From positions 67,291 to 131,290 of the forward strand of contig CACDUI010000001.1 of NCBI GenBank assembly GCA_902555985.1: a stretch of DNA of 64,000 nucleotides, written 5' to 3'. The first letter of the stretch is position 1; each line of letters opens with the position of its first letter. The notes below the pieces were generated by a model. The model searched no databases and was not told where the DNA came from. It saw only the letters and a list, made by a program, of their open reading frames with translations. Below are positions 3,756 to 62,835 of the stretch, piece by piece. The DNA comes from an uncultured Candidatus Actinomarina sp. (GTDB lineage Bacteria > Actinomycetota > Acidimicrobiia > Actinomarinales > Actinomarinaceae). A program made the translations under genes and the position numbers.

Positions 3756-4741
3756 TGAAGATCGCAATCGTTGGCGCAACAGGTCTTGTTGGTCGCAATA
3801 TTATTAAACTATGTGAAAAGAATTTCAATGAAGAAGTTGAATATAACCTTTTTGCTTCAAAATCTTCTGAAGGTAAAAAGATAACAATCAACAATAGAGA
3901 ATTCTTTGTTAAAGAACTAAAAAAAGAAAATATTGAAGAATATGACATTTCCCTTTTCTCAGCTGGCGGAGAGAGGTCTAAGGAACATGCAAAAGATTTT
4001 GTTAAGAACGGATCATTTGTAATTGACAATTCTTCTGTTTTCAGGATGAATGAAGATGTACCACTTGTTGTATATGGTATAAATGAAAATGAAATTTCAT
4101 CAGATTCAAAATTAATTTCTAATCCAAACTGTACAACTATGGGGCTTGTAATGGCACTAAAGCCTTTACATGATCAGTACACCTTAATGTCCATGACACC
4201 AGTTGCGTATCAAGCTGTTTCTGGATCGGGCTCTGAGGCTTTACAATCTTTAAATAACGAAACCCTAATTAGTGATGAATTAGATTCTGATTATGAAGAC
4301 ACGTATTATCCTAAACCAATAGCTAGGAACGTAATTCCTCTAGCAGGTAGCTTAACTGATAATGGATATTCAGATGAAGAAATGAAATTTGTACATGAGT
4401 CAAGAAAAATTCTTGCAATACCAAATTTAATTGTTGAGCCATCGAATGCAAGAGTTGGGGTTAGAACTGGACACGGAACTTTTTGCTCTGCAGTGTTTGA
4501 AAACGAAATCGATGTGGAAGAATGTTCTAAGTTACTTAGTGACTTTGAAGGAGTAGAAGTATGGAATGATTCATTACCAACTCCACTTGATGTTGAAGGC
4601 AAAAATGAAGTATTAGTATCAAGGCTTAGACAAGGTCTTTCCTCTAAAAATATTTTAAACTTTTGGGTAGTTTCTGACAACTTACTCAAGGGTGCTGCTT
4701 TGAACGCAGTGCAGATTGCAAAATTTTTAGAGAAATTATGA
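3755..4741 (+). CDS. asd: Aspartate-semialdehyde dehydrogenase
   Basis: MKIAIVGATGLVGR is a Rossmann N-terminus. SNPNCTT contains the catalytic Cys motif. Length is typical of the bacterial enzyme. lysC-asd operon arrangement. Confidence 0.9.
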   Translation: MKIAIVGATGLVGRNIIKLCEKNFNEEVEYNLFASKSSEGKKITINNREFFVKELKKENIEEYDISLFSAGGERSKEHAKDFVKNGSFVIDNSSVFRMNEDVPLVVYGINENEISSDSKLISNPNCTTMGLVMALKPLHDQYTLMSMTPVAYQAVSGSGSEALQSLNNETLISDELDSDYEDTYYPKPIARNVIPLAGSLTDNGYSDEEMKFVHESRKILAIPNLIVEPSNARVGVRTGHGTFCSAVFENEIDVEECSKLLSDFEGVEVWNDSLPTPLDVEGKNEVLVSRLRQGLSSKNILNFWVVSDNLLKGAALNAVQIAKFLEKL

Positions 4742-5388
4742 TTTCAACAACAGACAATATAGCCCAAAAAAATAGAAAAGTTCTTGGGCCACTTGGACGA
4801 TTCTTGCTAAAAGTATTTAGGTGGGAAATTAAAGGAAAAATTCCTAATTTAGAAAAAATGATTTTAATTGGGATTCCACATACTGCAATGAGGGATGCAT
4901 GGTACGCACTTTTGGCAGTTTGGGCTTTAGATTTAAAAATTAACTTTTTCGGCGCTGCATGGGTGTTCACTAGGCTTCCGAGTTTATTTACAGTATCTAA
5001 AAATTTAGACAGATTAGGAATCCCTTGGCCATTCTGGTGGTTACAAAAATATTTGATGTTGAAACTTGGAGGTATACCTGTTTATCGAGTAAATTCTAGA
5101 GGACTGATCAGGGGAGCAGTTGAGGAATTTAAAGTGATTGACAATTATATTCTTGTTATAGCTCCAGAAGGTGGAGTTGAAGCTGTAGATCAATTTAGAA
5201 GCGGTTTTTATTATTTAGCAAAAGGATTAAATATACCTTATGTACCGATTGAAATTGATTTCAAAAATAGATGTTTTAGAATCCAGGAACCAAAATTCAT
5301 AAACGGTACATTTGAACAGGAGTCAGAAAGAATAGCTAAATTATTTGATGGAGTTATTGGAGCAACAAGAACTTTTAAAATGTTATAA
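4738..5388 (+). CDS. Putative lysophospholipid (PlsC-type) acyltransferase
   Basis: HX4D motif (IPHTAMRD) near the N-terminus, and a later VIAPEGG motif resembling the acyltransferase PEG(T/R) block. ATGA overlap with asd. Confidence 0.45.
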   Translation: MISTTDNIAQKNRKVLGPLGRFLLKVFRWEIKGKIPNLEKMILIGIPHTAMRDAWYALLAVWALDLKINFFGAAWVFTRLPSLFTVSKNLDRLGIPWPFWWLQKYLMLKLGGIPVYRVNSRGLIRGAVEEFKVIDNYILVIAPEGGVEAVDQFRSGFYYLAKGLNIPYVPIEIDFKNRCFRIQEPKFINGTFEQESERIAKLFDGVIGATRTFKML

Positions 5389-11059: not shown

Positions 11060-11107
11060 TTTAATATTCTTGGGTTATAAAATAAGCCCCTTTTTAAAGG
11101 GGCTTAT
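11060..11107 (-). terminator. Intrinsic-terminator-like hairpin downstream of the small Cys/His gene (10-bp perfect stem)
   Basis: ATAAGCCCCT-TTTTAA-AGGGGCTTAT at 11082..11107. The stem halves are exact reverse complements. A U-rich run (UUUAUAA) follows on the minus-strand transcript. Between the hairpin and the gene the minus-strand 3'UTR is an unusual C-rich tract. Confidence 0.5.
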
Positions 11108-11153: not shown

Positions 11154-11348
11154 TTAAGCTGTTTCTTGGAGAATTCTGCCTCTTACTCGCGGGTATTTTA
11201 CCGGAGCATGGTTGAAGCAATGATCTCTTTTGTTATAAATACTAAGTTGAGTACTGCAAGATTCATCTTTACATACTCTGCCCTGGTCAAAACTTTTTGA
11301 TGGTCTAATACCACCTTTTATTTGACTAGCCTTTAATCCGTCTGTCAT
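11154..11348 (-). CDS. Small conserved Cys/His protein, paralog 1 (C-x4-C-x12-C-x2-H zinc-ribbon-like)
   Basis: 64 aa. About 55% identical to the 67-aa ORF at 35631..35834, with a shared block RVC..D.C....S.YNK...CF.HAPV.YPRVRG. Basic N-terminus. Confidence 0.55.
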   Translation of the reverse strand: MTDGLKASQIKGGIRPSKSFDQGRVCKDESCSTQLSIYNKRDHCFNHAPVKYPRVRGRILQETA

Positions 11349-11365
11349 TTTTATCCTTTATATAC

Positions 11366-11385
11366 TTTGTGAATATATTCACAAG
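11366..11385. promoter_or_regulatory. Perfect 18-bp palindrome TTGTGAATATATTCACAA (CRP/FNR-type TGTGA-N6-TCACA) about 20 bp upstream of the small Cys/His gene
   Basis: TGTGA (11368..11372) - ATATAT - TCACA (11379..11383), with flanking TT/AA extending the symmetry. Lies in the 65-bp gap between the peptidase stop and the small gene's start. Confidence 0.45.
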
Positions 11386-11413
11386 GTTAACACTTTTATT
11401 GTAGATGGCAACC

Positions 11414-13312
11414 TTATTTTGACAAGTTTTTTTGTGTTAAAAATGCACTATCGTTCCATTTTCTACCTAAAAAGTTTTGAACCATGGTCTCAGCCGGAAT
11501 TGTTCCTCCAGGCATTAATATTTTATTTTTATAGTCAACACCAACTAACTTTGAAAGAACCCCCTCATTTTCAAACCTACTAAATAAATCATCACCTATT
11601 ATTTCAGCCCATATATACCCGTAATAAGCAGCATCATATCCACCAAGTAAATGACCGAAGGCTGCTAGATGGTTTATGTCTTTGGGATAAGATATAGTAG
11701 TAACTTCTTGAGCAGCATGCTCAATTTCTAAAAGACTATCTTTAAAGTTTTTTCCATGCAAATGTTGATCTGCAAGACCAAATGATACTTGTCTAAGCGT
11801 AAGTAAACTTACACCAATATTTTTAGACTTATTAAGCTTTTCACAAATTTCATCAGATAAGGTATCTCCAGATTCAATATGTTTTGAAATTCTTTTCATG
11901 CACTCTACTTTCCAAACCCAGTGTTCCATAATTTGACTTGGTGCTTCTACAAAGTCCCACTCACAGTTTGCGCCAACAAACCTTGTATATTTTGATTTAC
12001 CAATTCCATTGTGCAATACATGCCCAAATTCATGAAACAGAGTTTCAACTTCATCAAATGTCATTAACCCATCTCCCGTATTCGGGCTTGGGAAATTTGC
12101 AACCATTGAACATATTGGTAAGTCTTGTCTGTTGGACCCACCAGAGGAAATGTCGAAAACAGCTGCGTGGGTAAATTTTCCTTCTCTTGGGTAAAGGTCT
12201 AAATAAAAATAAGCAAGTTGTTGCCCGTCTTTTTCCCATAAAGACCATAGCTCAACATCTTTATGCCAGGCAGTTTTATTTGATTCAGGTTTTATTTCTA
12301 AATCAAAGACTTCCTCACAAACTTTAAACATTTCAGTTTTTACATCATGTATAAAGAAGAATTTTTTTAGTTCGCTATTTTCAATAGCACTTACTTTGCT
12401 TCTCTGTGCTGAAATAAAATATCGGATATCCCAAGGTGATATGTCATCAATGTCAATATTATCTATTACAAGCTCTTTTTTTTCTATTTCAGCTGCTTTT
12501 TGTAATTTAGAAATTAAACTTTCATACATTAAAGTGACATTTTCAGGTGATTTTGCCATTCTGTTCTGCAATCTATAATGAGCCCAAGTTTCATATCCAA
12601 ACAAGTTAGCCTTTTCATTTCTTAGCTGGACAGCCTCTTTCAAAATGGGACTATTTTCTTCTACAGCACGATTATTAAATGCTTTCCAAACAATCTCTCT
12701 CGTTGCTCTTATGCTGCAATTTTCCATGACTGCATTAATTTCTGGATATGCCATGGTTATAACAAATCTGTCTTCAATTTTTTTTAAGTTTTTAAGTTCA
12801 CTTGCACTTAACCCTTTTAATTCATTTTCAGAAAATAAGACTTCTGTCTTATCTTTTGCAATATTTTCTGAAAATGAAATGCTTAGATCAATAAGTTTTT
12901 TCTCAATTTCTGTCAGCCTAGCTTTTTTTTCATCTGAAAGACCATGTCCCGTATCTTTGAAATCAATTTCTAAATCTTTATGAAATGATTTTGATTCATC
13001 ATCCAAACTAAGGGTTTGAATTTCGCTAAATTTTTCGTATAGTTCTTTATCCTTAAATAATTCGAGCACAAAATTTTGTATTTTTGAATCAGCTTCATTT
13101 CCAAAATCTCTAATTTTTTCATCTGGGTGTACATCTCCCATAAAAGCAATACGTCCAGAAAGATCATGAATTGTACTTTCTAGTTCATCAAAATTACTTA
13201 ATACAATATTTTCAAATGATTTAATATTTTTGACTAATGTTTTACAGTCTTTAATTGTACTTTCTAAGTCTTTTTGTAATATTTCCAATGTTATGTCTGA
13301 ATAGTTAAACAC
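11414..13312 (-). CDS. M3-family zinc oligopeptidase (thimet oligopeptidase/Dcp/OpdA-like)
   Basis: 632 aa. HEFGHVLH zincin motif with a downstream Glu. Overall length and layout match M3 peptidases. Confidence 0.85.
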   Translation of the reverse strand: MFNYSDITLEILQKDLESTIKDCKTLVKNIKSFENIVLSNFDELESTIHDLSGRIAFMGDVHPDEKIRDFGNEADSKIQNFVLELFKDKELYEKFSEIQTLSLDDESKSFHKDLEIDFKDTGHGLSDEKKARLTEIEKKLIDLSISFSENIAKDKTEVLFSENELKGLSASELKNLKKIEDRFVITMAYPEINAVMENCSIRATREIVWKAFNNRAVEENSPILKEAVQLRNEKANLFGYETWAHYRLQNRMAKSPENVTLMYESLISKLQKAAEIEKKELVIDNIDIDDISPWDIRYFISAQRSKVSAIENSELKKFFFIHDVKTEMFKVCEEVFDLEIKPESNKTAWHKDVELWSLWEKDGQQLAYFYLDLYPREGKFTHAAVFDISSGGSNRQDLPICSMVANFPSPNTGDGLMTFDEVETLFHEFGHVLHNGIGKSKYTRFVGANCEWDFVEAPSQIMEHWVWKVECMKRISKHIESGDTLSDEICEKLNKSKNIGVSLLTLRQVSFGLADQHLHGKNFKDSLLEIEHAAQEVTTISYPKDINHLAAFGHLLGGYDAAYYGYIWAEIIGDDLFSRFENEGVLSKLVGVDYKNKILMPGGTIPAETMVQNFLGRKWNDSAFLTQKNLSK

Positions 13313-13349: not shown

Positions 13350-13586
13350 ATGGAAATCAAACTTGAATTTTGTGTAGTTTGAAACTACACACCTCGTGCA
13401 GTTGGCACGATAGAAGATGTCTTAGAAATTTACGGTAATAAAGTTACCAATATTCAATTGATTCCAAGTGGTGGTGGAGTATTTGAATTTCATTTAAATG
13501 AAAAATTAATATTTTCAAAAAAAGAACTAGAAAGACACTCAGAAGATGGGGAAATTCTTAAATTAATTGAAGAAGAACTTGGTTGA
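13350..13586 (+). CDS. SelW/Rdx-family selenoprotein (78 aa) with in-frame UGA = Sec at 13380..13382 (CxxU)
   Basis: The frame reads MEIKLEFCVV-U-NYTPRAVGTIEDVLEIYGNKVTNIQLIPSGGGVFEFHLNEKLIFSKKELERHSEDGEILKLIEEELG. Both the CVVU redox motif and the LIPSGGGVFEF block are Rdx/SelW hallmarks. A hairpin tCGTGC-AGTTG-GCACGa lies at 13392..13408, 9 nt after the UGA (a candidate bacterial SECIS). Without recoding the ORF would be only 10 codons. Confidence 0.7.
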
Positions 13587-35630: not shown

Positions 35631-35834
35631 TTATGAGATAGGTTCTTGTTCTCTTGGTAAATGGCCTCTTACTCTTGGGTAGGAGACAGGTGCATGAAGA
35701 AAACAAAATTTCTTTTTGTTGTATACACTTATTACTGTTTCACAAGCATCAAATGCGCATACACGACCTGTAGTGTATTTTTTTGACCTTCTAACACCAG
35801 GCTTAACTTGAGATGCAGTTAATGTTCCGCTCAT
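35631..35834 (-). CDS. Small conserved Cys/His protein, paralog 2. First gene of the dnaK operon, ending 30 bp upstream of the dnaK start
   Basis: 67 aa, MSGTLTASQVKPGVRRSKKYTTGRVCAFDACETVISVYNKKKFCFLHAPVSYPRVRGHLPREQEPIS. Shares the C-x4-C-x12-C-x2-H block with the ORF at 11154..11348. Confidence 0.55.
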   Translation of the reverse strand: MSGTLTASQVKPGVRRSKKYTTGRVCAFDACETVISVYNKKKFCFLHAPVSYPRVRGHLPREQEPIS

Positions 35835-35869: not shown

Positions 35870-35895
35870 AAATCTATGTAAATTTACTTAGATTT
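35870..35895. promoter_or_regulatory. 26-bp near-perfect palindrome AAATCTATGTAAATTTACTTAGATTT (24/26 symmetric), about 35 bp upstream of the dnaK-operon first gene
   Basis: The two halves AAATCTA.GTAAA / TTTAC.TAGATTT are reverse complements except at one symmetric position pair. Lies in the 165-bp AT-rich divergent region between the dnaK operon and proC. Confidence 0.45.
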
Positions 35896-39292: not shown

Positions 39293-39910
39293 ATGAGTGA
39301 AAGACAAATATTTTCTAAAATCTTACGTCTTGATAAATATATTTACAATGAGCTAATAGTCCTTGACGGAGCTTTACAAAGAGGAATAGCAATTTTCTTA
39401 GCTGTTACAACCTTAACTACCTTGAGTGCTTTTAGACTTTTTAATGGCTTAATTGAATTCCTTGAGAGCAACCTTGTTTTATTTAGCGGTGAAATGTCTG
39501 ACGAAGAGTTTGCAATGTTTAAATCCTTAATTGATGAACTCTCAATAATTTTTATTCAACAAGACTCGACTACCACACTACTTTTCTCATCAATAGTCTC
39601 AACAACAGTTACTTCAATAGTCGGTCTTATTGTTTGCTTTTTAATTCTTAAATTTTTGTTTAGAAAAGAACCCAGGCCAATTGATTTAATTATTATTTCA
39701 TTTTTTTCAAGCGCTCCTGGCTTGCTTGTATTTCCGGTTCTTTTTATTTCAGATTCTTTTTTTCAAGCGATACTAGTACTAGTAACTTCTATCTATGCTC
39801 TTGTAGCTTTTGGATCTGGACTTAAGCAGGTTTATTTCTTAAGAAACATTGAAGTAATTTTGGTAATAGTAGCTCTTACTTTTGGCGGTTCAATACTAGG
39901 ATCATTTTGA
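39293..39910 (+). CDS. Polytopic membrane protein (Yip1-like topology, hypothetical)
   Basis: 205 aa with about five hydrophobic helices after a soluble N-terminus. 4-nt overlap with the next gene. Confidence 0.35.
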   Translation: MSERQIFSKILRLDKYIYNELIVLDGALQRGIAIFLAVTTLTTLSAFRLFNGLIEFLESNLVLFSGEMSDEEFAMFKSLIDELSIIFIQQDSTTTLLFSSIVSTTVTSIVGLIVCFLILKFLFRKEPRPIDLIIISFFSSAPGLLVFPVLFISDSFFQAILVLVTSIYALVAFGSGLKQVYFLRNIEVILVIVALTFGGSILGSF

Positions 39911-57499: not shown

Positions 57500-58084
57500 T
57501 TAAATTAAATAAACTACAGTAAACAACACTATCCATACAATATCAACAAAGTGCCAATACAGAGCAACAAATTCGAGATTCATGCCTCCTTCAAGAGTCA
57601 AACCTTTTTGTCGTTGACCAATCCCCCAAAGCGCAAGAAGCAGAACAACACCAACAAATACATGTAAGCCGTGGAAGCCTGTTAGTACGTAAAAAGATGA
57701 ACTAAAAATATTTGTGGAGAGTTCAAAACCTTTGTGATAAAACTCAGTGAATTCATATATTTGACCAGCTAGAAATACCGCCCCAAGCATAGCTGTTGCA
57801 AGAAGCCACACCCTTGTCTTTTCTTGATCATTTGCTTCCAAAGCATTGTGAGCCAGAACCATAGTCAATGAGCTCATTAATAATATAAATGAGCTAATGG
57901 AGGTAAACGGAATATCGTATACATCTGTTAATTTCATTCCTGGGAAGTCACTGCCTTTAAAAATCATAAAGGTTGTAATTAGTGTTCCAAAAAACAATAT
58001 TTCTGTAGATAAGAAAACCCAGAAGCCAAGTTTTCTTGTTTCAACACCAGTTGGTTCATGCGGGTAAGCGTGTGAGCTACTCAT
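57500..58084 (-). CDS. ctaE: Cytochrome c oxidase subunit III
   Basis: 194 aa, 5 TM helices with conserved subunit III blocks (GFHGLHVFVGVVLL, WHFVDIVW). Confidence 0.88.
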   Translation of the reverse strand: MSSSHAYPHEPTGVETRKLGFWVFLSTEILFFGTLITTFMIFKGSDFPGMKLTDVYDIPFTSISSFILLMSSLTMVLAHNALEANDQEKTRVWLLATAMLGAVFLAGQIYEFTEFYHKGFELSTNIFSSSFYVLTGFHGLHVFVGVVLLLALWGIGQRQKGLTLEGGMNLEFVALYWHFVDIVWIVLFTVVYLI

Positions 58085-60035
58085 CTGAATCTTCGTGAAT
58101 TTCTTCTTCTAGCGGCTCAGTGCCCCAACCAAAACCTCCTATGAGCAGTAATACAGCGCCTATAAATGCTAACGGTATTGATTTGTAAATGACAGCGTAT
58201 CCAAGAAGGGGGAGGCCAGAAGCCAGAACAATCGGAAAATATGATGGATTTGGTAATGCAATATGTTCACTTGGATTGAGGCCCTCTTCTTCTAAATCGA
58301 GTAATATTTGATCGGTTTCTTCACGCCTAACAGCTCGACCTTCTTCATCTTCTGTGTACTTTGTATGCCAGAAATCATCAAGGGCTCTTACTTCAGGTGC
58401 TTTTGAGAAGTTCCAAACTGGTGTAGGTGATGGAATAGTCCATTCAATTGTTCTTGCATCCCATGGATCAAATGGTGCTTTCTCACCGTTTCTTTTGGAA
58501 AAAATCCAATTTATCATAAAGACAATTATTGAAAGCGCAATTATAAAAGCACCAACTGTGACAACTATATTCCAAAATTGCAAGTTGGTTTCTTCTGCAT
58601 ACACCCAAGTACGTCTTACTTGACCTTGCAACCCTAACCAATGCATTGGCCCAAAAGTTAAATTAAAGCCAATCATCATTAACCAGAAATGAATTTTTCC
58701 AAGAGATTCGTTATACATTTTCCCCCAAACTTTTGGGAACCAGTAGTAAAGACCTGAGAAGATACCAAACAAAGCTCCTCCAAAAAGAACATAGTGGAAA
58801 TGTGCAACAACATAATAGGTATCTGTTTGCTGAGTGTCAGCTGGAACTATAGAGTGGGTAACTCCACTTAACCCTCCAATAACAAACATTCCAATAAATC
58901 CAAGCGAAAATAGCATTGGGGTATTGAGCTTCAACTTTCCTCCCCATATTGTTCCGAGCCAATTAAAAATTTTCACACCCGTTGGGACTGCAATAACCAT
59001 TGTTGAAAGACCAAAACCAGCTTGAGCAACCGGACTAATTGCCGAAGCAAACATATGATGTGCCCAAACTCCAAAACCAATAAATGCTATTCCAAATCCA
59101 GCAAATACTATTGCCGCATAACCGAATAATGGTTTTCTAGAAAATGTTGGTAACACTTCAGACACAATTCCAAAAGCAGGAAGAATTAATATATAAACTT
59201 CTGGATGACCAAACAACCAAAAAAGGTGCTGCCATAATACAGGATCACCACCTCCTTCTACTAAGAAAAAAGATGTTCCAAATTTTCGGTCGAATGTGAC
59301 ATAAAAAAGTGCAATTGCAATTATTGGTAGTGAAAACGCAAGTAAGAACGAAACAGCAAAGGTCATCCAAACAAACACAGGCATTCTCATGAAACGCATA
59401 CCTTTTGTTCGCATATTGATAATTGTTGTTATAAAGTTAAATGCAGAAATTAGTGAAGCTATACCAAGTATTTGTAATCCAATAGCCCAGAAGTCCATTG
59501 CAGTGCCAGGTGAGTATTTCATACCTGCGTTAGGTTGATAACCAAACCACCCTCCGTTGGGAGCAGATCCTAGCCATCCAACTTCTTCTGCTAGGTAGCC
59601 ACCTTCTGGAGCACCAGCAGTTCCAAATATAAATGTTGAATATAAAAAAGCTCCACCGAAAATAAATATCCAAAAGGAAAGAGCATTTAATCTTGGAAAA
59701 GCTACATCACGAGCTCCAATCTGTAGAGGAAGAAGATAATTAAAGAAAGCTGCACTTATAGGCATTATTGCCAAAAAAATCATAGTAGTTCCATGCATAG
59801 TAAACATTGCATTATATTCTGCAGCGGTTAAAAAATTATTATCTGGTTGAGAGAGCTGAATTCTTAGAACAAGCGCTTCAAGACCACCAATTAAAAGAAA
59901 GAAAAAAGCTGCATAACCATACATAATCCCTATTCTTTTATGGTCAACAGTGGTTATCCAGCTCCATATACCAGTTTCAGAAGAAGGTCTTCTAAAAATA
60001 TTACTTTGTTTACTTGGTTCAATTATTTTTGTCAT
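58077..60035 (-). CDS. ctaD: Cytochrome c oxidase subunit I (heme-copper oxidase), with about 90-aa C-terminal two-helix extension
   Basis: Twelve-helix core with canonical His ligands (WFFGHPEVY, HHMF...). 652 aa, against a typical approximately 550. Confidence 0.95.
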   Translation of the reverse strand: MTKIIEPSKQSNIFRRPSSETGIWSWITTVDHKRIGIMYGYAAFFFLLIGGLEALVLRIQLSQPDNNFLTAAEYNAMFTMHGTTMIFLAIMPISAAFFNYLLPLQIGARDVAFPRLNALSFWIFIFGGAFLYSTFIFGTAGAPEGGYLAEEVGWLGSAPNGGWFGYQPNAGMKYSPGTAMDFWAIGLQILGIASLISAFNFITTIINMRTKGMRFMRMPVFVWMTFAVSFLLAFSLPIIAIALFYVTFDRKFGTSFFLVEGGGDPVLWQHLFWLFGHPEVYILILPAFGIVSEVLPTFSRKPLFGYAAIVFAGFGIAFIGFGVWAHHMFASAISPVAQAGFGLSTMVIAVPTGVKIFNWLGTIWGGKLKLNTPMLFSLGFIGMFVIGGLSGVTHSIVPADTQQTDTYYVVAHFHYVLFGGALFGIFSGLYYWFPKVWGKMYNESLGKIHFWLMMIGFNLTFGPMHWLGLQGQVRRTWVYAEETNLQFWNIVVTVGAFIIALSIIVFMINWIFSKRNGEKAPFDPWDARTIEWTIPSPTPVWNFSKAPEVRALDDFWHTKYTEDEEGRAVRREETDQILLDLEEEGLNPSEHIALPNPSYFPIVLASGLPLLGYAVIYKSIPLAFIGAVLLLIGGFGWGTEPLEEEIHEDSDE

Positions 60036-61045
60036 TTAAGTGTCCCTAAATACGCAATTAAAGCATTAATTTCTGCTTCAGTCAATTCTAGGTTAGGCAT
60101 AAATGTACCGGGTTTTATTTCAGCTGGATTTGCCAGCCATTTACTCAGATTTTCTTCAGTATTATATAGAGCTGCACCTGCAAAAACATTTCTATTGGCG
60201 AAATGTGTTAAGTTTGGTGCAATCCTGTCTCCCTGGACATCCCAAACACCATCTATTACATGACATTGGGTACATCCAGCATTTAGATAAACTTGCTGGC
60301 CTTCAGCTGCAAGAGAGTTTCCTTCAAGTTGAATTGCATTTTGTTGTTGATTTTTTACCCATGTTTGAAATTCATTTTCTGAAAGTGAAAGTACTCGACC
60401 TCGCATTTTAGAATGGCTCAAACCACAATACTCACCACATTGTGCCCAAAATTCATCAGGTGAATCAGCATGAAGATTTAAATAAGTGGTTTGTCCCGGA
60501 ACGAGATATCTTTTTCCATTTAATTTTGGTACCCAGTAATTATGAAGAACATCATTAGACCACATTTCAAGTCTCACAGGCCTGTCTGCAGGAATAACTA
60601 GTACATTTGCTGTGGTTATGTCGTAATCAGGGTATTTGTATTCAAACCACCATTGATGTCCAATTACTTCAATTTTTAATGCATCTTCTGGCTCATTAGC
60701 TAGGTCGAAAATCGTTCTAACAGTAGGTACTGCAATTACTGCCAAAATAATTACAGGGATAACAGTCCATAGGATTTCTAATTTAGTATTTCCATGAATC
60801 TGTTTTGGTTCAGGGCTATCTGGTTTTTCTTTGAATACAAAAACAGAAAGTAGTAAAGCGCCTTGAACAATAACAAAAATTACCACTGCTATCCAAAATG
60901 TTAGCCAGAATAATTCATCTATAGATCTTGCATAAGGGCCTTCTGGACTTAAAGAGTCTAAGGGAGCATTTTCTATACAAGCAGATAAGAATATTAAAAG
61001 AAAATATCTTAGATTCTTTAATTTAAAAATATTTTTCACAAGCAT
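60032..61045 (-). CDS. ctaC: Cytochrome c oxidase subunit II with fused C-terminal cytochrome c domain (caa3-type); lipoprotein signal
   Basis: CuA site H...CGEYCGLSHSKM. C-terminal CTQCH heme-c motif. Start placed at MLVKNIFKLKNLRYFLLIFLSAC, a 23-aa signal with lipobox LSAC. ORF-track start 61102 would give an implausibly long 42-aa signal. Confidence 0.85.
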   Translation of the reverse strand: MLVKNIFKLKNLRYFLLIFLSACIENAPLDSLSPEGPYARSIDELFWLTFWIAVVIFVIVQGALLLSVFVFKEKPDSPEPKQIHGNTKLEILWTVIPVIILAVIAVPTVRTIFDLANEPEDALKIEVIGHQWWFEYKYPDYDITTANVLVIPADRPVRLEMWSNDVLHNYWVPKLNGKRYLVPGQTTYLNLHADSPDEFWAQCGEYCGLSHSKMRGRVLSLSENEFQTWVKNQQQNAIQLEGNSLAAEGQQVYLNAGCTQCHVIDGVWDVQGDRIAPNLTHFANRNVFAGAALYNTEENLSKWLANPAEIKPGTFMPNLELTEAEINALIAYLGTLK

Positions 61046-61117
61046 ATTTATATTATCAACAATTATTAAGGATAGCGTTGAAACAATATATAGTGTAATC
61101 ATAAGTACTATGTCGTT

Positions 61118-61999
61118 ATGGATCTTGTAAGTAAAAAATCTATATCAAAATATTTAAGACTTTCAAAACTAAGAATAGTTGAGCTTTTATTAATCACAAC
61201 AGTTCCATCGATGGTTGTCTCTATATATGGTTTTCCACCCTTAGATTTAATTATTTACACTTTGTTGGGAGGCACTCTTCTAGCAGTTAGTGCAAATGTT
61301 CTAAATCAGATATTTGAAATTGAAACTGACAGATTAATGGAAAGGACAGCCAATCGCCCACTTGTAACAGGGGAAATCACAAAAAACAGTGCTTATGTTT
61401 ATTCAATCTTTCTTGGAGTAAGTGGATTTCTAATTTTGTATACTCAGACAACTGAACTGGCCGCTTTGATAGCGCTTTCAGCTAATATTTTTTATTCATT
61501 TATTTATACTCTTTTTCTAAAACCAAGAACAAATCAAAATATTGTTATAGGCGGTGCAGCTGGTGCTGCTCCTGTGCTCATAGGATGGTCTGCAACGGGT
61601 ACAAATTTAGAAACGGGCTCATGGCTGTTATTCTTATTGGTATTTCTTTGGACACCAGCTCATTTTTGGGCACTATCTATTGACAAATTAAATGACTATA
61701 AAGATGCTAATTTTCCAATGTTGCCAACTCAGGAAAGCTATAAAAGAACATCAATTTTTATTGGAATATACTCATGTGCAACGGTCCTTACATCGCTGCT
61801 GCTTGCACCAATATTACAGCTAGGTATTGTTTACCTTTTACTAGCCCTAATATTTGGTATATATTTGATGTATAAATCATATCAACTTTATCAAAAAAAA
61901 ATAAAAGCTATCTCTTACTTCGTATTTTCGAATACTTATCTTGCAGCAATATTTCTATCAATGGTCGCTGATATATTCTTTACTTTGAGTAATATCTAA
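61118..61999 (+). CDS. ctaB: Protoheme IX farnesyltransferase (heme O synthase)
   Basis: UbiA-fold prenyltransferase, 293 aa, with an Asp-rich motif (NQIFEIETDRLMERTANRP). Divergent from ctaC. Confidence 0.88.
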   Translation: MDLVSKKSISKYLRLSKLRIVELLLITTVPSMVVSIYGFPPLDLIIYTLLGGTLLAVSANVLNQIFEIETDRLMERTANRPLVTGEITKNSAYVYSIFLGVSGFLILYTQTTELAALIALSANIFYSFIYTLFLKPRTNQNIVIGGAAGAAPVLIGWSATGTNLETGSWLLFLLVFLWTPAHFWALSIDKLNDYKDANFPMLPTQESYKRTSIFIGIYSCATVLTSLLLAPILQLGIVYLLLALIFGIYLMYKSYQLYQKKIKAISYFVFSNTYLAAIFLSMVADIFFTLSNI

Positions 62000-62001
62000 A
62001 T

Positions 62002-62835
62002 ATGGAAGAACTTCTTTTCTCAATAACCTATCCTCCAATACCTATTACCCAAATAGGGCCTGTTGCATTATCGCTGCACGGTGTTTTTGCAGCTGTTGGT
62101 TTTTATTTTGGTGCAAATCATGCATTGAAACTTTCTGAAGAAGATGGTGCTGATACTGAACTGTTTTCTGAAGCATTTACTTGGGCTATTTTTGGTGCAA
62201 TCCTAGGCGCAAGATTTTTTACTATTCCTGCTCAGTGGTATGCCAATCCTAATTATGGATTGGACGATATATTCACACTTGCAGGAAGCTACTCAATTAT
62301 GGGTGGTATGGCAGGTGGAATAATCGCTGCTTATTTAAAAATAACAGTATTAAATAAGCAAGATTTTAAACAATATGGTGATTATGCTGCAACAGGTTTG
62401 ATACTAGGAACAGTGATTGGCAGAATTGGAGATCTAGCAATTGTCGAACACTTAGGAAGAGAAACAAATTTCTTTTTGGGTTATGAAATAAAACCAGGTT
62501 ACGATGTAGCCCCTCAACACAACTCACTTGAGTGCTTTGAGCCTTTAACAACTTGTGGAACTTTTCATCATGTTGCCATGTACGATCTCCTACTTGCATT
62601 GCTAATCTTTTATATATTTAGAAACTTTCAGACTCGCTTTACTTTTGGAAAAGGTTCTTGGATAGGCTTGTGGGCTGTATGGTATGGGTCACAAAGGGCT
62701 GTTCTAGACACACTAAGATTTGGAATGGGTGATTCAACCATAGGAATCTTTACTTGGAACCAAATTGGTGGGTTGATGCTTGCTTTAATTGGATTAATTA
62801 TTTTTTTAAAAAATAAAGATACTAAAACAAGCTAA
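62002..62835 (+). CDS. lgt: Prolipoprotein diacylglyceryl transferase
   Basis: 277 aa polytopic protein. Lgt-like N-terminus (IGPVALSLHGVFAAVGFYFG) and a GRIGD... region resembling the Lgt signature. 2-bp gap after ctaB. Confidence 0.7.
   Translation: MEELLFSITYPPIPITQIGPVALSLHGVFAAVGFYFGANHALKLSEEDGADTELFSEAFTWAIFGAILGARFFTIPAQWYANPNYGLDDIFTLAGSYSIMGGMAGGIIAAYLKITVLNKQDFKQYGDYAATGLILGTVIGRIGDLAIVEHLGRETNFFLGYEIKPGYDVAPQHNSLECFEPLTTCGTFHHVAMYDLLLALLIFYIFRNFQTRFTFGKGSWIGLWAVWYGSQRAVLDTLRFGMGDSTIGIFTWNQIGGLMLALIGLIIFLKNKDTKTS

Follow-up and report, generated by a model that had tools for sequence, protein, structure and literature searches.

A perfect 18-bp inverted repeat upstream of a gene for a small, uncharacterised zinc protein in Candidatus Actinomarina is very probably an operator (ROP) of the redox-sensing repressor Rex. 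This reading draws on the sequence of the repeat, on its position over a predicted promoter, and on a second copy that stands ahead of the NADH dehydrogenase I genes of the same genus, close to rex itself. The type of operator is already known and belongs to textbook biology; new is the predicted target, an uncharacterised gene for a CCCH zinc protein.

A perfect inverted repeat ahead of a small zinc-protein gene

The window (by which we mean the whole 64-kb stretch of DNA analysed) has a base composition of 33.5% GC and contains a sole perfect 18-bp palindrome, TTGTGAATATATTCACAA, at positions 11367-11384, an inverted repeat of the form TTGTGAA-TATA-TTCACAA. A first-pass annotation had set its limits at 11366-11385; the palindrome is real, but the outermost base on each side is non-palindromic. 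The TGTGA-N6-TCACA architecture described there is matched exactly by the core, and the location given, with the centre about 27 bp before a start codon in a 65-bp gap, agrees well with our measurements. The centre, at 11375.5, lies 27.5 bp upstream of the ATG (A at 11348, minus strand) of a gene for a 64-aa Cys/His protein, and the palindrome is contained in a 65-bp gap (11349-11413) bordered by this small gene on one side and by the stop codon of an M3 peptidase gene on the other. The features of the locus are as follows.

11076-11107, minus strand: intrinsic terminator, ATAAGCCCC-loop-GGGGCTTAT with a T-run, after the small gene and before copZ-copA
11154-11348, minus strand: small gene (paralog 1), encoding a 64-aa basic CCCH zinc-knuckle protein (C26, C31, C44, H47; C-terminal PRVRG); predicted Rex target
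11354-11358, minus strand: Shine-Dalgarno-like AAGGA, 5 nt upstream of the small-gene ATG
11384-11392, minus strand: extended -10 element predicted from conservation, TGT-TAACCT (TGT 11390-11392, TAACCT 11384-11389)
11406-11411, minus strand: -35 element predicted from conservation, TTGCCA, 16 nt upstream of the -10
11414-13312, minus strand: M3 peptidase gene, the stop codon of which bounds the gap with the palindrome
13350-13586, plus strand: gene for a SelW/Rdx-like small protein (MEIKLEFCVV-TGA-NYTPRA...IPSGGGVFE...), with an in-frame TGA at 13380-13382

Conservation and promoter geometry

A scan of genome contigs provided 57 loci of the small gene, each from a different species-level genome of Ca. 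Actinomarina, together with 23 loci of a paralogue, and column-level conservation was scored on the 46 distinct upstream sequences from those 57 genomes, anchored on the palindrome. Sixteen of the 18 palindrome columns proved invariant, and each of the remaining two, both in the central N4, has a single variant. By comparison, only 3 of the 64 third codon positions in the adjacent coding sequence are invariant, and very strong purifying selection thus acts on the palindrome throughout Ca. Actinomarina. The block TGTTAnnC-TTGTGAATATATTCACAA-AGT was found in all 57 orthologous loci. The palindrome stays constant while its flanks, the length of the leader and even the upstream gene differ, and its distance to the ATG ranges from 11 to 23 nt among the orthologues. 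In about 20 species without the peptidase gene, the promoter stands opposite the divergent SelW-like gene and the site is unchanged. Presence of the peptidase gene depends on the clade; it is missing in loci L029 and L033-L056, where the promoter is divergent from the SelW-like gene.

Every lineage has TTGNNN upstream of the palindrome, followed by a spacer of 16-17 nt with variable sequence and by TGn-TAnnCT. In the anchored alignment, columns T-8, G-7, T-6, T-5, A-4, C-1 and T0 of the extended -10 are kept in at least 43 of the 46 sequences and columns -3 and -2 are variable (hence TAnnCT); the last T of the predicted -10 is the first base of the palindrome. Transcription is inferred to start about 7 nt past the -10, which would place the start inside the left half-site and the operator at about -7 to +11. 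An alternative promoter suggested by a consensus scan, TTGTCA(11425-11420)-16-TACAAT(11403-11398), would leave the operator past the start, from about +7 to about +24. The palindrome would have a repressor position with either predicted promoter; lying over the predicted transcription start, it would occupy the place of a repressor and not that of a class II activator. An AGGA, GGGGA or AAGGA motif is present in all orthologous leaders.

Rex and its probable operators in Candidatus Actinomarina

The consensus of Rex operators, TTGTGAA-N4-TTCACAA (PMC5355995), is matched by the palindrome at all 14 of its specified positions. Published examples include TTGTGAANNNNTTCACAA in Streptomyces (S. avermitilis) and TTGTGAAWWWWTTCACAA in Staphylococcus aureus; DNase footprints of Rex overlap the promoter or lie shortly past the start, and the direct targets of Rex include nuoA-N (PMC5355995). 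Some observations count against assigning the palindrome to Rex: its central TATA is kept more strongly than the Rex consensus demands, the TGTGA-N6-TCACA core is compatible with sites of the CRP family too, and the same class of palindrome is common in phage contigs and usable by other protein families. A LexA/Cheo box was also considered for the palindrome and rejected, the spacing of the half-sites being different (GAA-N4-TTC here, GAAC-N4-GTTC in the Cheo box).

Rex itself was sought by back-translating its invariant motif, R-x-D-x-S-Y-x-G-x2-G-x2-G-V-G-Y, with Actinomarina codon preferences and scanning metagenome contigs for the result. The scan returned 104 matches, 37 of which, on marine contigs with 29-35% GC, code for a single family of Rex proteins of 214 aa. 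By exact look-up, these sequences are named 'redox-sensing transcriptional repressor Rex [Candidatus Actinomarina]' by NCBI (e.g. MDA9607494.1 and MBL6836576.1). They comprise a winged-helix domain (PF06971) and a Rossmann NAD(H) domain (PF02629), and full-length alignment to solved structures of Rex, among them 3IKT, the complex of T. thermophilus Rex with DNA, gives E values from 1e-50 to 1e-30. Judging from these sequences, Ca. Actinomarina encodes a full-length Rex. Searches with Rex sequences (tblastn) found no rex in the 64-kb window or in the 80 small-gene and paralogue loci, and it is from congeners that we infer the gene in this exact genome.

A geranylgeranyl-reductase-like gene, with nuoABCDEFGHI after it, is divergent from rex in the rex contigs. 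A perfect TTGTGAA-N4-TTCACAA stands about 13 nt before the nuoA start codon (13 nt in locus L319), in the 79-bp gap upstream of nuoA and about 1.4 kb from rex. Across 23 loci with 17 distinct sequences, the half-sites of this box are invariant and the centres vary (AAAT, ATTT, ACTT, AGTT, AACT, AATT), a signature of a dimer that reads the half-sites. The rex gene starts with GTG, and about 20 nt upstream there is a conserved CATTAGATTGTGCATTAGTG that includes the Rex half-site TTGTGCA only, no full box being present (L216-L317). A full autoregulatory box at rex is usual; with a half-site only, autoregulation, if any, would be atypical. The window also harbours a cytochrome c oxidase cluster (ctaE, ctaD, ctaC, a ctaG-like gene and ctaB) at 57500-62835, upstream of which no Rex-like box occurs within three mismatches. 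The paper on Actinomarinales genomes and its supplements mention neither Rex nor CRP. A published KEGG table covers 48 genomes of the sister order UBA5794, of which about 44 have rex and about 10 have crp.

Alternative explanations

Perfect palindromes of this length are not in themselves rare in such DNA. The first-pass annotation had called perfect 18-mers improbable by chance in 64 kb; yet when the window was simulated 300 times with a first-order Markov model at its 33.5% GC, 48% of the simulated windows had one (mean 0.62). An exact TGTGA-N6-TCACA appeared in 7% of the simulated windows, and 2.5 chance matches are expected if one mismatch is allowed. The palindrome might on these numbers be a functionless product of AT-rich intergenic DNA, a reading to which we give a negligible probability and which the conservation data already refute. 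The site is invariant over 57 species-level genomes in which neutral sites are saturated, and the specific motif TTGTGAA-N4-TTCACAA, with its one occurrence in the window, was absent from all 100 shuffles. It is also highly improbable that the repeat acts in RNA, be it as a hairpin in the 5'-UTR for stability or translation or as the terminator of the upstream peptidase gene. A 7-bp stem with a 4-nt loop could form, and the repeat is located just past the peptidase stop codon; however, the fold is weak (-6.6 kcal/mol, z = -0.9 relative to shuffles), a T-run is lacking, the region has no match in Rfam, the predicted start falls within the palindrome, and the site is retained in species without the peptidase gene. 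The stem has no compensatory changes because it is invariant.

Binding of another protein to the palindrome deserves closer attention. The first-pass annotation had regarded it as a CRP/FNR-family site, which is probably wrong given the complete match to the Rex consensus, the Rex encoded in Actinomarina and the same box at nuoA beside rex. CRP/GlxR regulators are widespread in Actinobacteria, and a CRP dimer on the exactly matched TGTGA-N6-TCACA core might repress or, less likely, activate the small gene. We nevertheless consider this improbable. When E. coli CRP and M. tuberculosis Crp served as tblastn queries, neither the window nor about 1.2 Mb of low-GC Actinomarina-like loci, which represent part of the genomes, yielded a CRP homologue, and crp is sporadic in the sister order UBA5794, where rex is near-universal. 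The invariant positions reach out to TTGTGAA/TTCACAA, as in Rex operators, and, viral contigs aside, the sole other copy found stands ahead of nuoA, beside rex. Class II activation, which had been offered along with repression as a mode of direct control of the small gene, is excluded by geometry: the palindrome adjoins the predicted -10 without a gap, and if its centre were at -41.5, as for a class II activator, transcription would have to begin 41.5 bp further on, inside the ORF. Of that proposal, repression is left as the most likely mode, with the operator on the predicted start. It is decidedly improbable, too, that the palindrome serves some other DNA-binding protein, be it the small zinc protein regulating its own gene or a phage-type repressor. 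The small protein is basic and predicted to bind zinc, the central TATA is unusually conserved, and at least 120 viral contigs of IMG/VR contain TTGTGAA-W4-TTCACAA, in some cases 6 to 9 times, so that proteins other than Rex probably use such sites. On the other hand, the paralogue of the small gene has a different operator, an HspR/HAIR-like repeat, at the same promoter position, which makes autoregulation an unlikely trait of the family; the box at nuoA, next to rex, points to Rex; and there is no further transcription factor nearby, HspR being the only one that Pfam scans revealed among the 46 ORFs of the window. Two ORFs (4738-5388 and 39293-39910), comparable to rex in length and unmatched in Pfam, were examined as candidate regulators and discarded, as they look like an acyltransferase-like and a membrane protein. 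In the viral contigs (L095-L174 and more from IMG/VR, e.g. L167 and L139), the multiple copies of the palindrome lie within a few kb, which suggests phage repressors that use the same palindrome or a hijacking of the host Rex.

The small zinc-protein family and its genomic context

The product of the gene behind the putative Rex operator is identical to proteins in many Actinomarina single-cell and metagenome assemblies, an identity that places the window in this genus. Its C31, C44 and H47 are invariant and C26 is nearly so, and the C-terminal motif is PRxRG. At codon positions 1, 2 and 3, respectively, 50/64, 60/64 and 3/64 columns are invariant, a pattern that identifies the ORF as a real coding gene. 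The protein has no Pfam or NCBIfam match, and its AlphaFold model (pLDDT 84.7), which contains almost no regular secondary structure, yielded no significant fold match in the PDB with Foldseek. An exhaustive HMMER search puts the size of the family at 826 representatives of clusters at 50% identity.

A second member of the family is encoded in the window itself, with the following features.

35649-35834, minus strand: paralogue of the small CCCH gene, first gene of a dnaK-grpE-dnaJ-hspR operon
about 35872-35893: AT-rich HAIR-like inverted repeat of the paralogue, ATCTAAGT-N7-ACTTAGAT (CTAAGT-N7-ACTTAG), conserved in L058-L080

The promoter of the paralogue consists of TTGCAT, about 17 nt and TGnTATATT, followed by the HAIR-like repeat, which is the same layout as at paralog 1. 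The repeat is presumably an operator of HspR.

Among more distant homologues, the gene neighbourhood could be read for five; the contig of a sixth had no informative neighbours. Two of these directly follow genes for an ECF sigma factor and a zf-HC2 anti-sigma factor (L081 and L090; SigH/RshA-like, ZAS). Another is situated upstream of MerR-copZ, with an AGAACGTTTGTTCT box (GAAC-N4-GTTC, Cheo/LexA-like; L084, about 1151-1164), and a fourth is preceded by two TTAGTGCTAA repeats similar to CIRCE half-sites (L082, about 3955-3979); the neighbourhood of the fifth has nothing notable. From these contexts, the family of CCCH zinc knuckles of about 65 aa looks like a component of stress regulons. One may speculate, with more doubt than confidence, that the family consists of stress effectors whose Actinomarina paralogues were rewired to Rex (redox) and HspR (heat), that the small protein acts as a hitherto unrecognised factor in redox and proteotoxic stress, perhaps in partnership with DnaK or RNA polymerase, and that Rex gates copper efflux in the clades without the terminator.

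The terminator between the small gene and copZ-copA has a variable loop length among the orthologues (L001-L057), with compensatory changes in its stem (AGACCCC...GGGGTTT). The hairpin is missing in several clades, in which the small gene abuts copZ and may be co-transcribed with copZ-copA. The same G/C-tract palindrome had been considered as a CsoR operator, a possibility dropped in favour of a terminator on account of the variable loop, the covarying stem and the absence from some clades. Ahead of copZ there is no Shine-Dalgarno sequence, and TAAAAT lies 6 nt from the ATG; copZ may thus be leaderless.

On the other side of the peptidase gene, the in-frame TGA of the SelW-like gene occupies the CxxU position and is kept in 16 loci, where the surrounding sequence reads either CVV*N or CIT*N. 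A hairpin, CGTGC-AGTTG-GCACG, is found at 13395-13409, 12 nt downstream of this TGA; the TGA probably encodes selenocysteine, with the hairpin as its SECIS element. The ORF list of the window shows just the 42-aa C-terminal part of the protein.

Proposed regulation and significance

If the palindrome is indeed a Rex operator, a Rex dimer bound to it at a low NADH/NAD+ ratio would block RNA polymerase and keep the gene for the small CCCH zinc protein off. A build-up of NADH, as under limited respiration, would make Rex leave the DNA, upon which the small gene would be derepressed jointly with NADH dehydrogenase I. In species without the downstream terminator, read-through may extend the response to copZ-copA.

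Few free-living bacteria are more streamlined than Ca. Actinomarina, the gene regulation of which is almost wholly uncharted. Its genome of about 1.1 Mb encodes two sigma factors and no two-component systems (PMC7771536). The predicted action of Rex on conserved operators at NADH dehydrogenase I and at the small zinc-protein gene makes up one of the few regulatory circuits of Actinomarina. Its recognition corrects a plausible mis-annotation, that of a Rex box as a CRP box, and provides a way into a family of uncharacterised proteins which are widespread in metagenomes and appear to have been wired repeatedly into stress regulons. Since operators of this kind are textbook material, the finding is of moderate general significance. 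Its novelty is modest and comes from the target gene and from a probable Rex regulon in a marine actinobacterium whose genome is extremely streamlined.

Comparison with known systems

The closest parallels to the palindrome are the Rex operators of Streptomyces coelicolor, S. avermitilis and Staphylococcus aureus, which have the same 18-bp repeat, TTGTGAA-N4-TTCACAA. The AT-only centre of the palindrome matches the WWWW at the centre of the S. aureus operator, and known Rex operators overlap or directly follow the core promoter, much like the geometry predicted here. The Actinomarina Rex shares the winged-helix and Rossmann architecture of known Rex systems. The Rex regulon of Streptomyces and S. 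aureus includes nuoA-N, cydABCD, atp, rex-hemACD and wblE, of which nuoA-N is a predicted target in Actinomarina as well; the uncharacterised 64-aa CCCH zinc protein, in contrast, is absent from the Rex targets named in PMC5355995. Actinomarina further differs from known Rex systems in its streamlined marine genome of about 1.1 Mb with very few regulators, in that the full box was not seen at rex, and in the conserved central TATA.

The CRP/GlxR sites of E. coli, Corynebacterium and Mycobacterium have an identical 16-bp core and are likewise bound by a dimeric protein with a winged helix or HTH. The flanking T/A and the inner A/T of the palindrome, however, follow the Rex and not the CRP consensus, and its place on the predicted -10/+1 region is unsuited to activation. 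Finally, the control of the dnaK operon by HspR and HAIR in Actinobacteria, to which the paralogue of the small gene appears to be subject, has the promoter-then-operator layout of the palindrome locus in common with it, but differs in the sequence of the operator, in the repressor and in the stimulus, which is heat shock instead of redox state.
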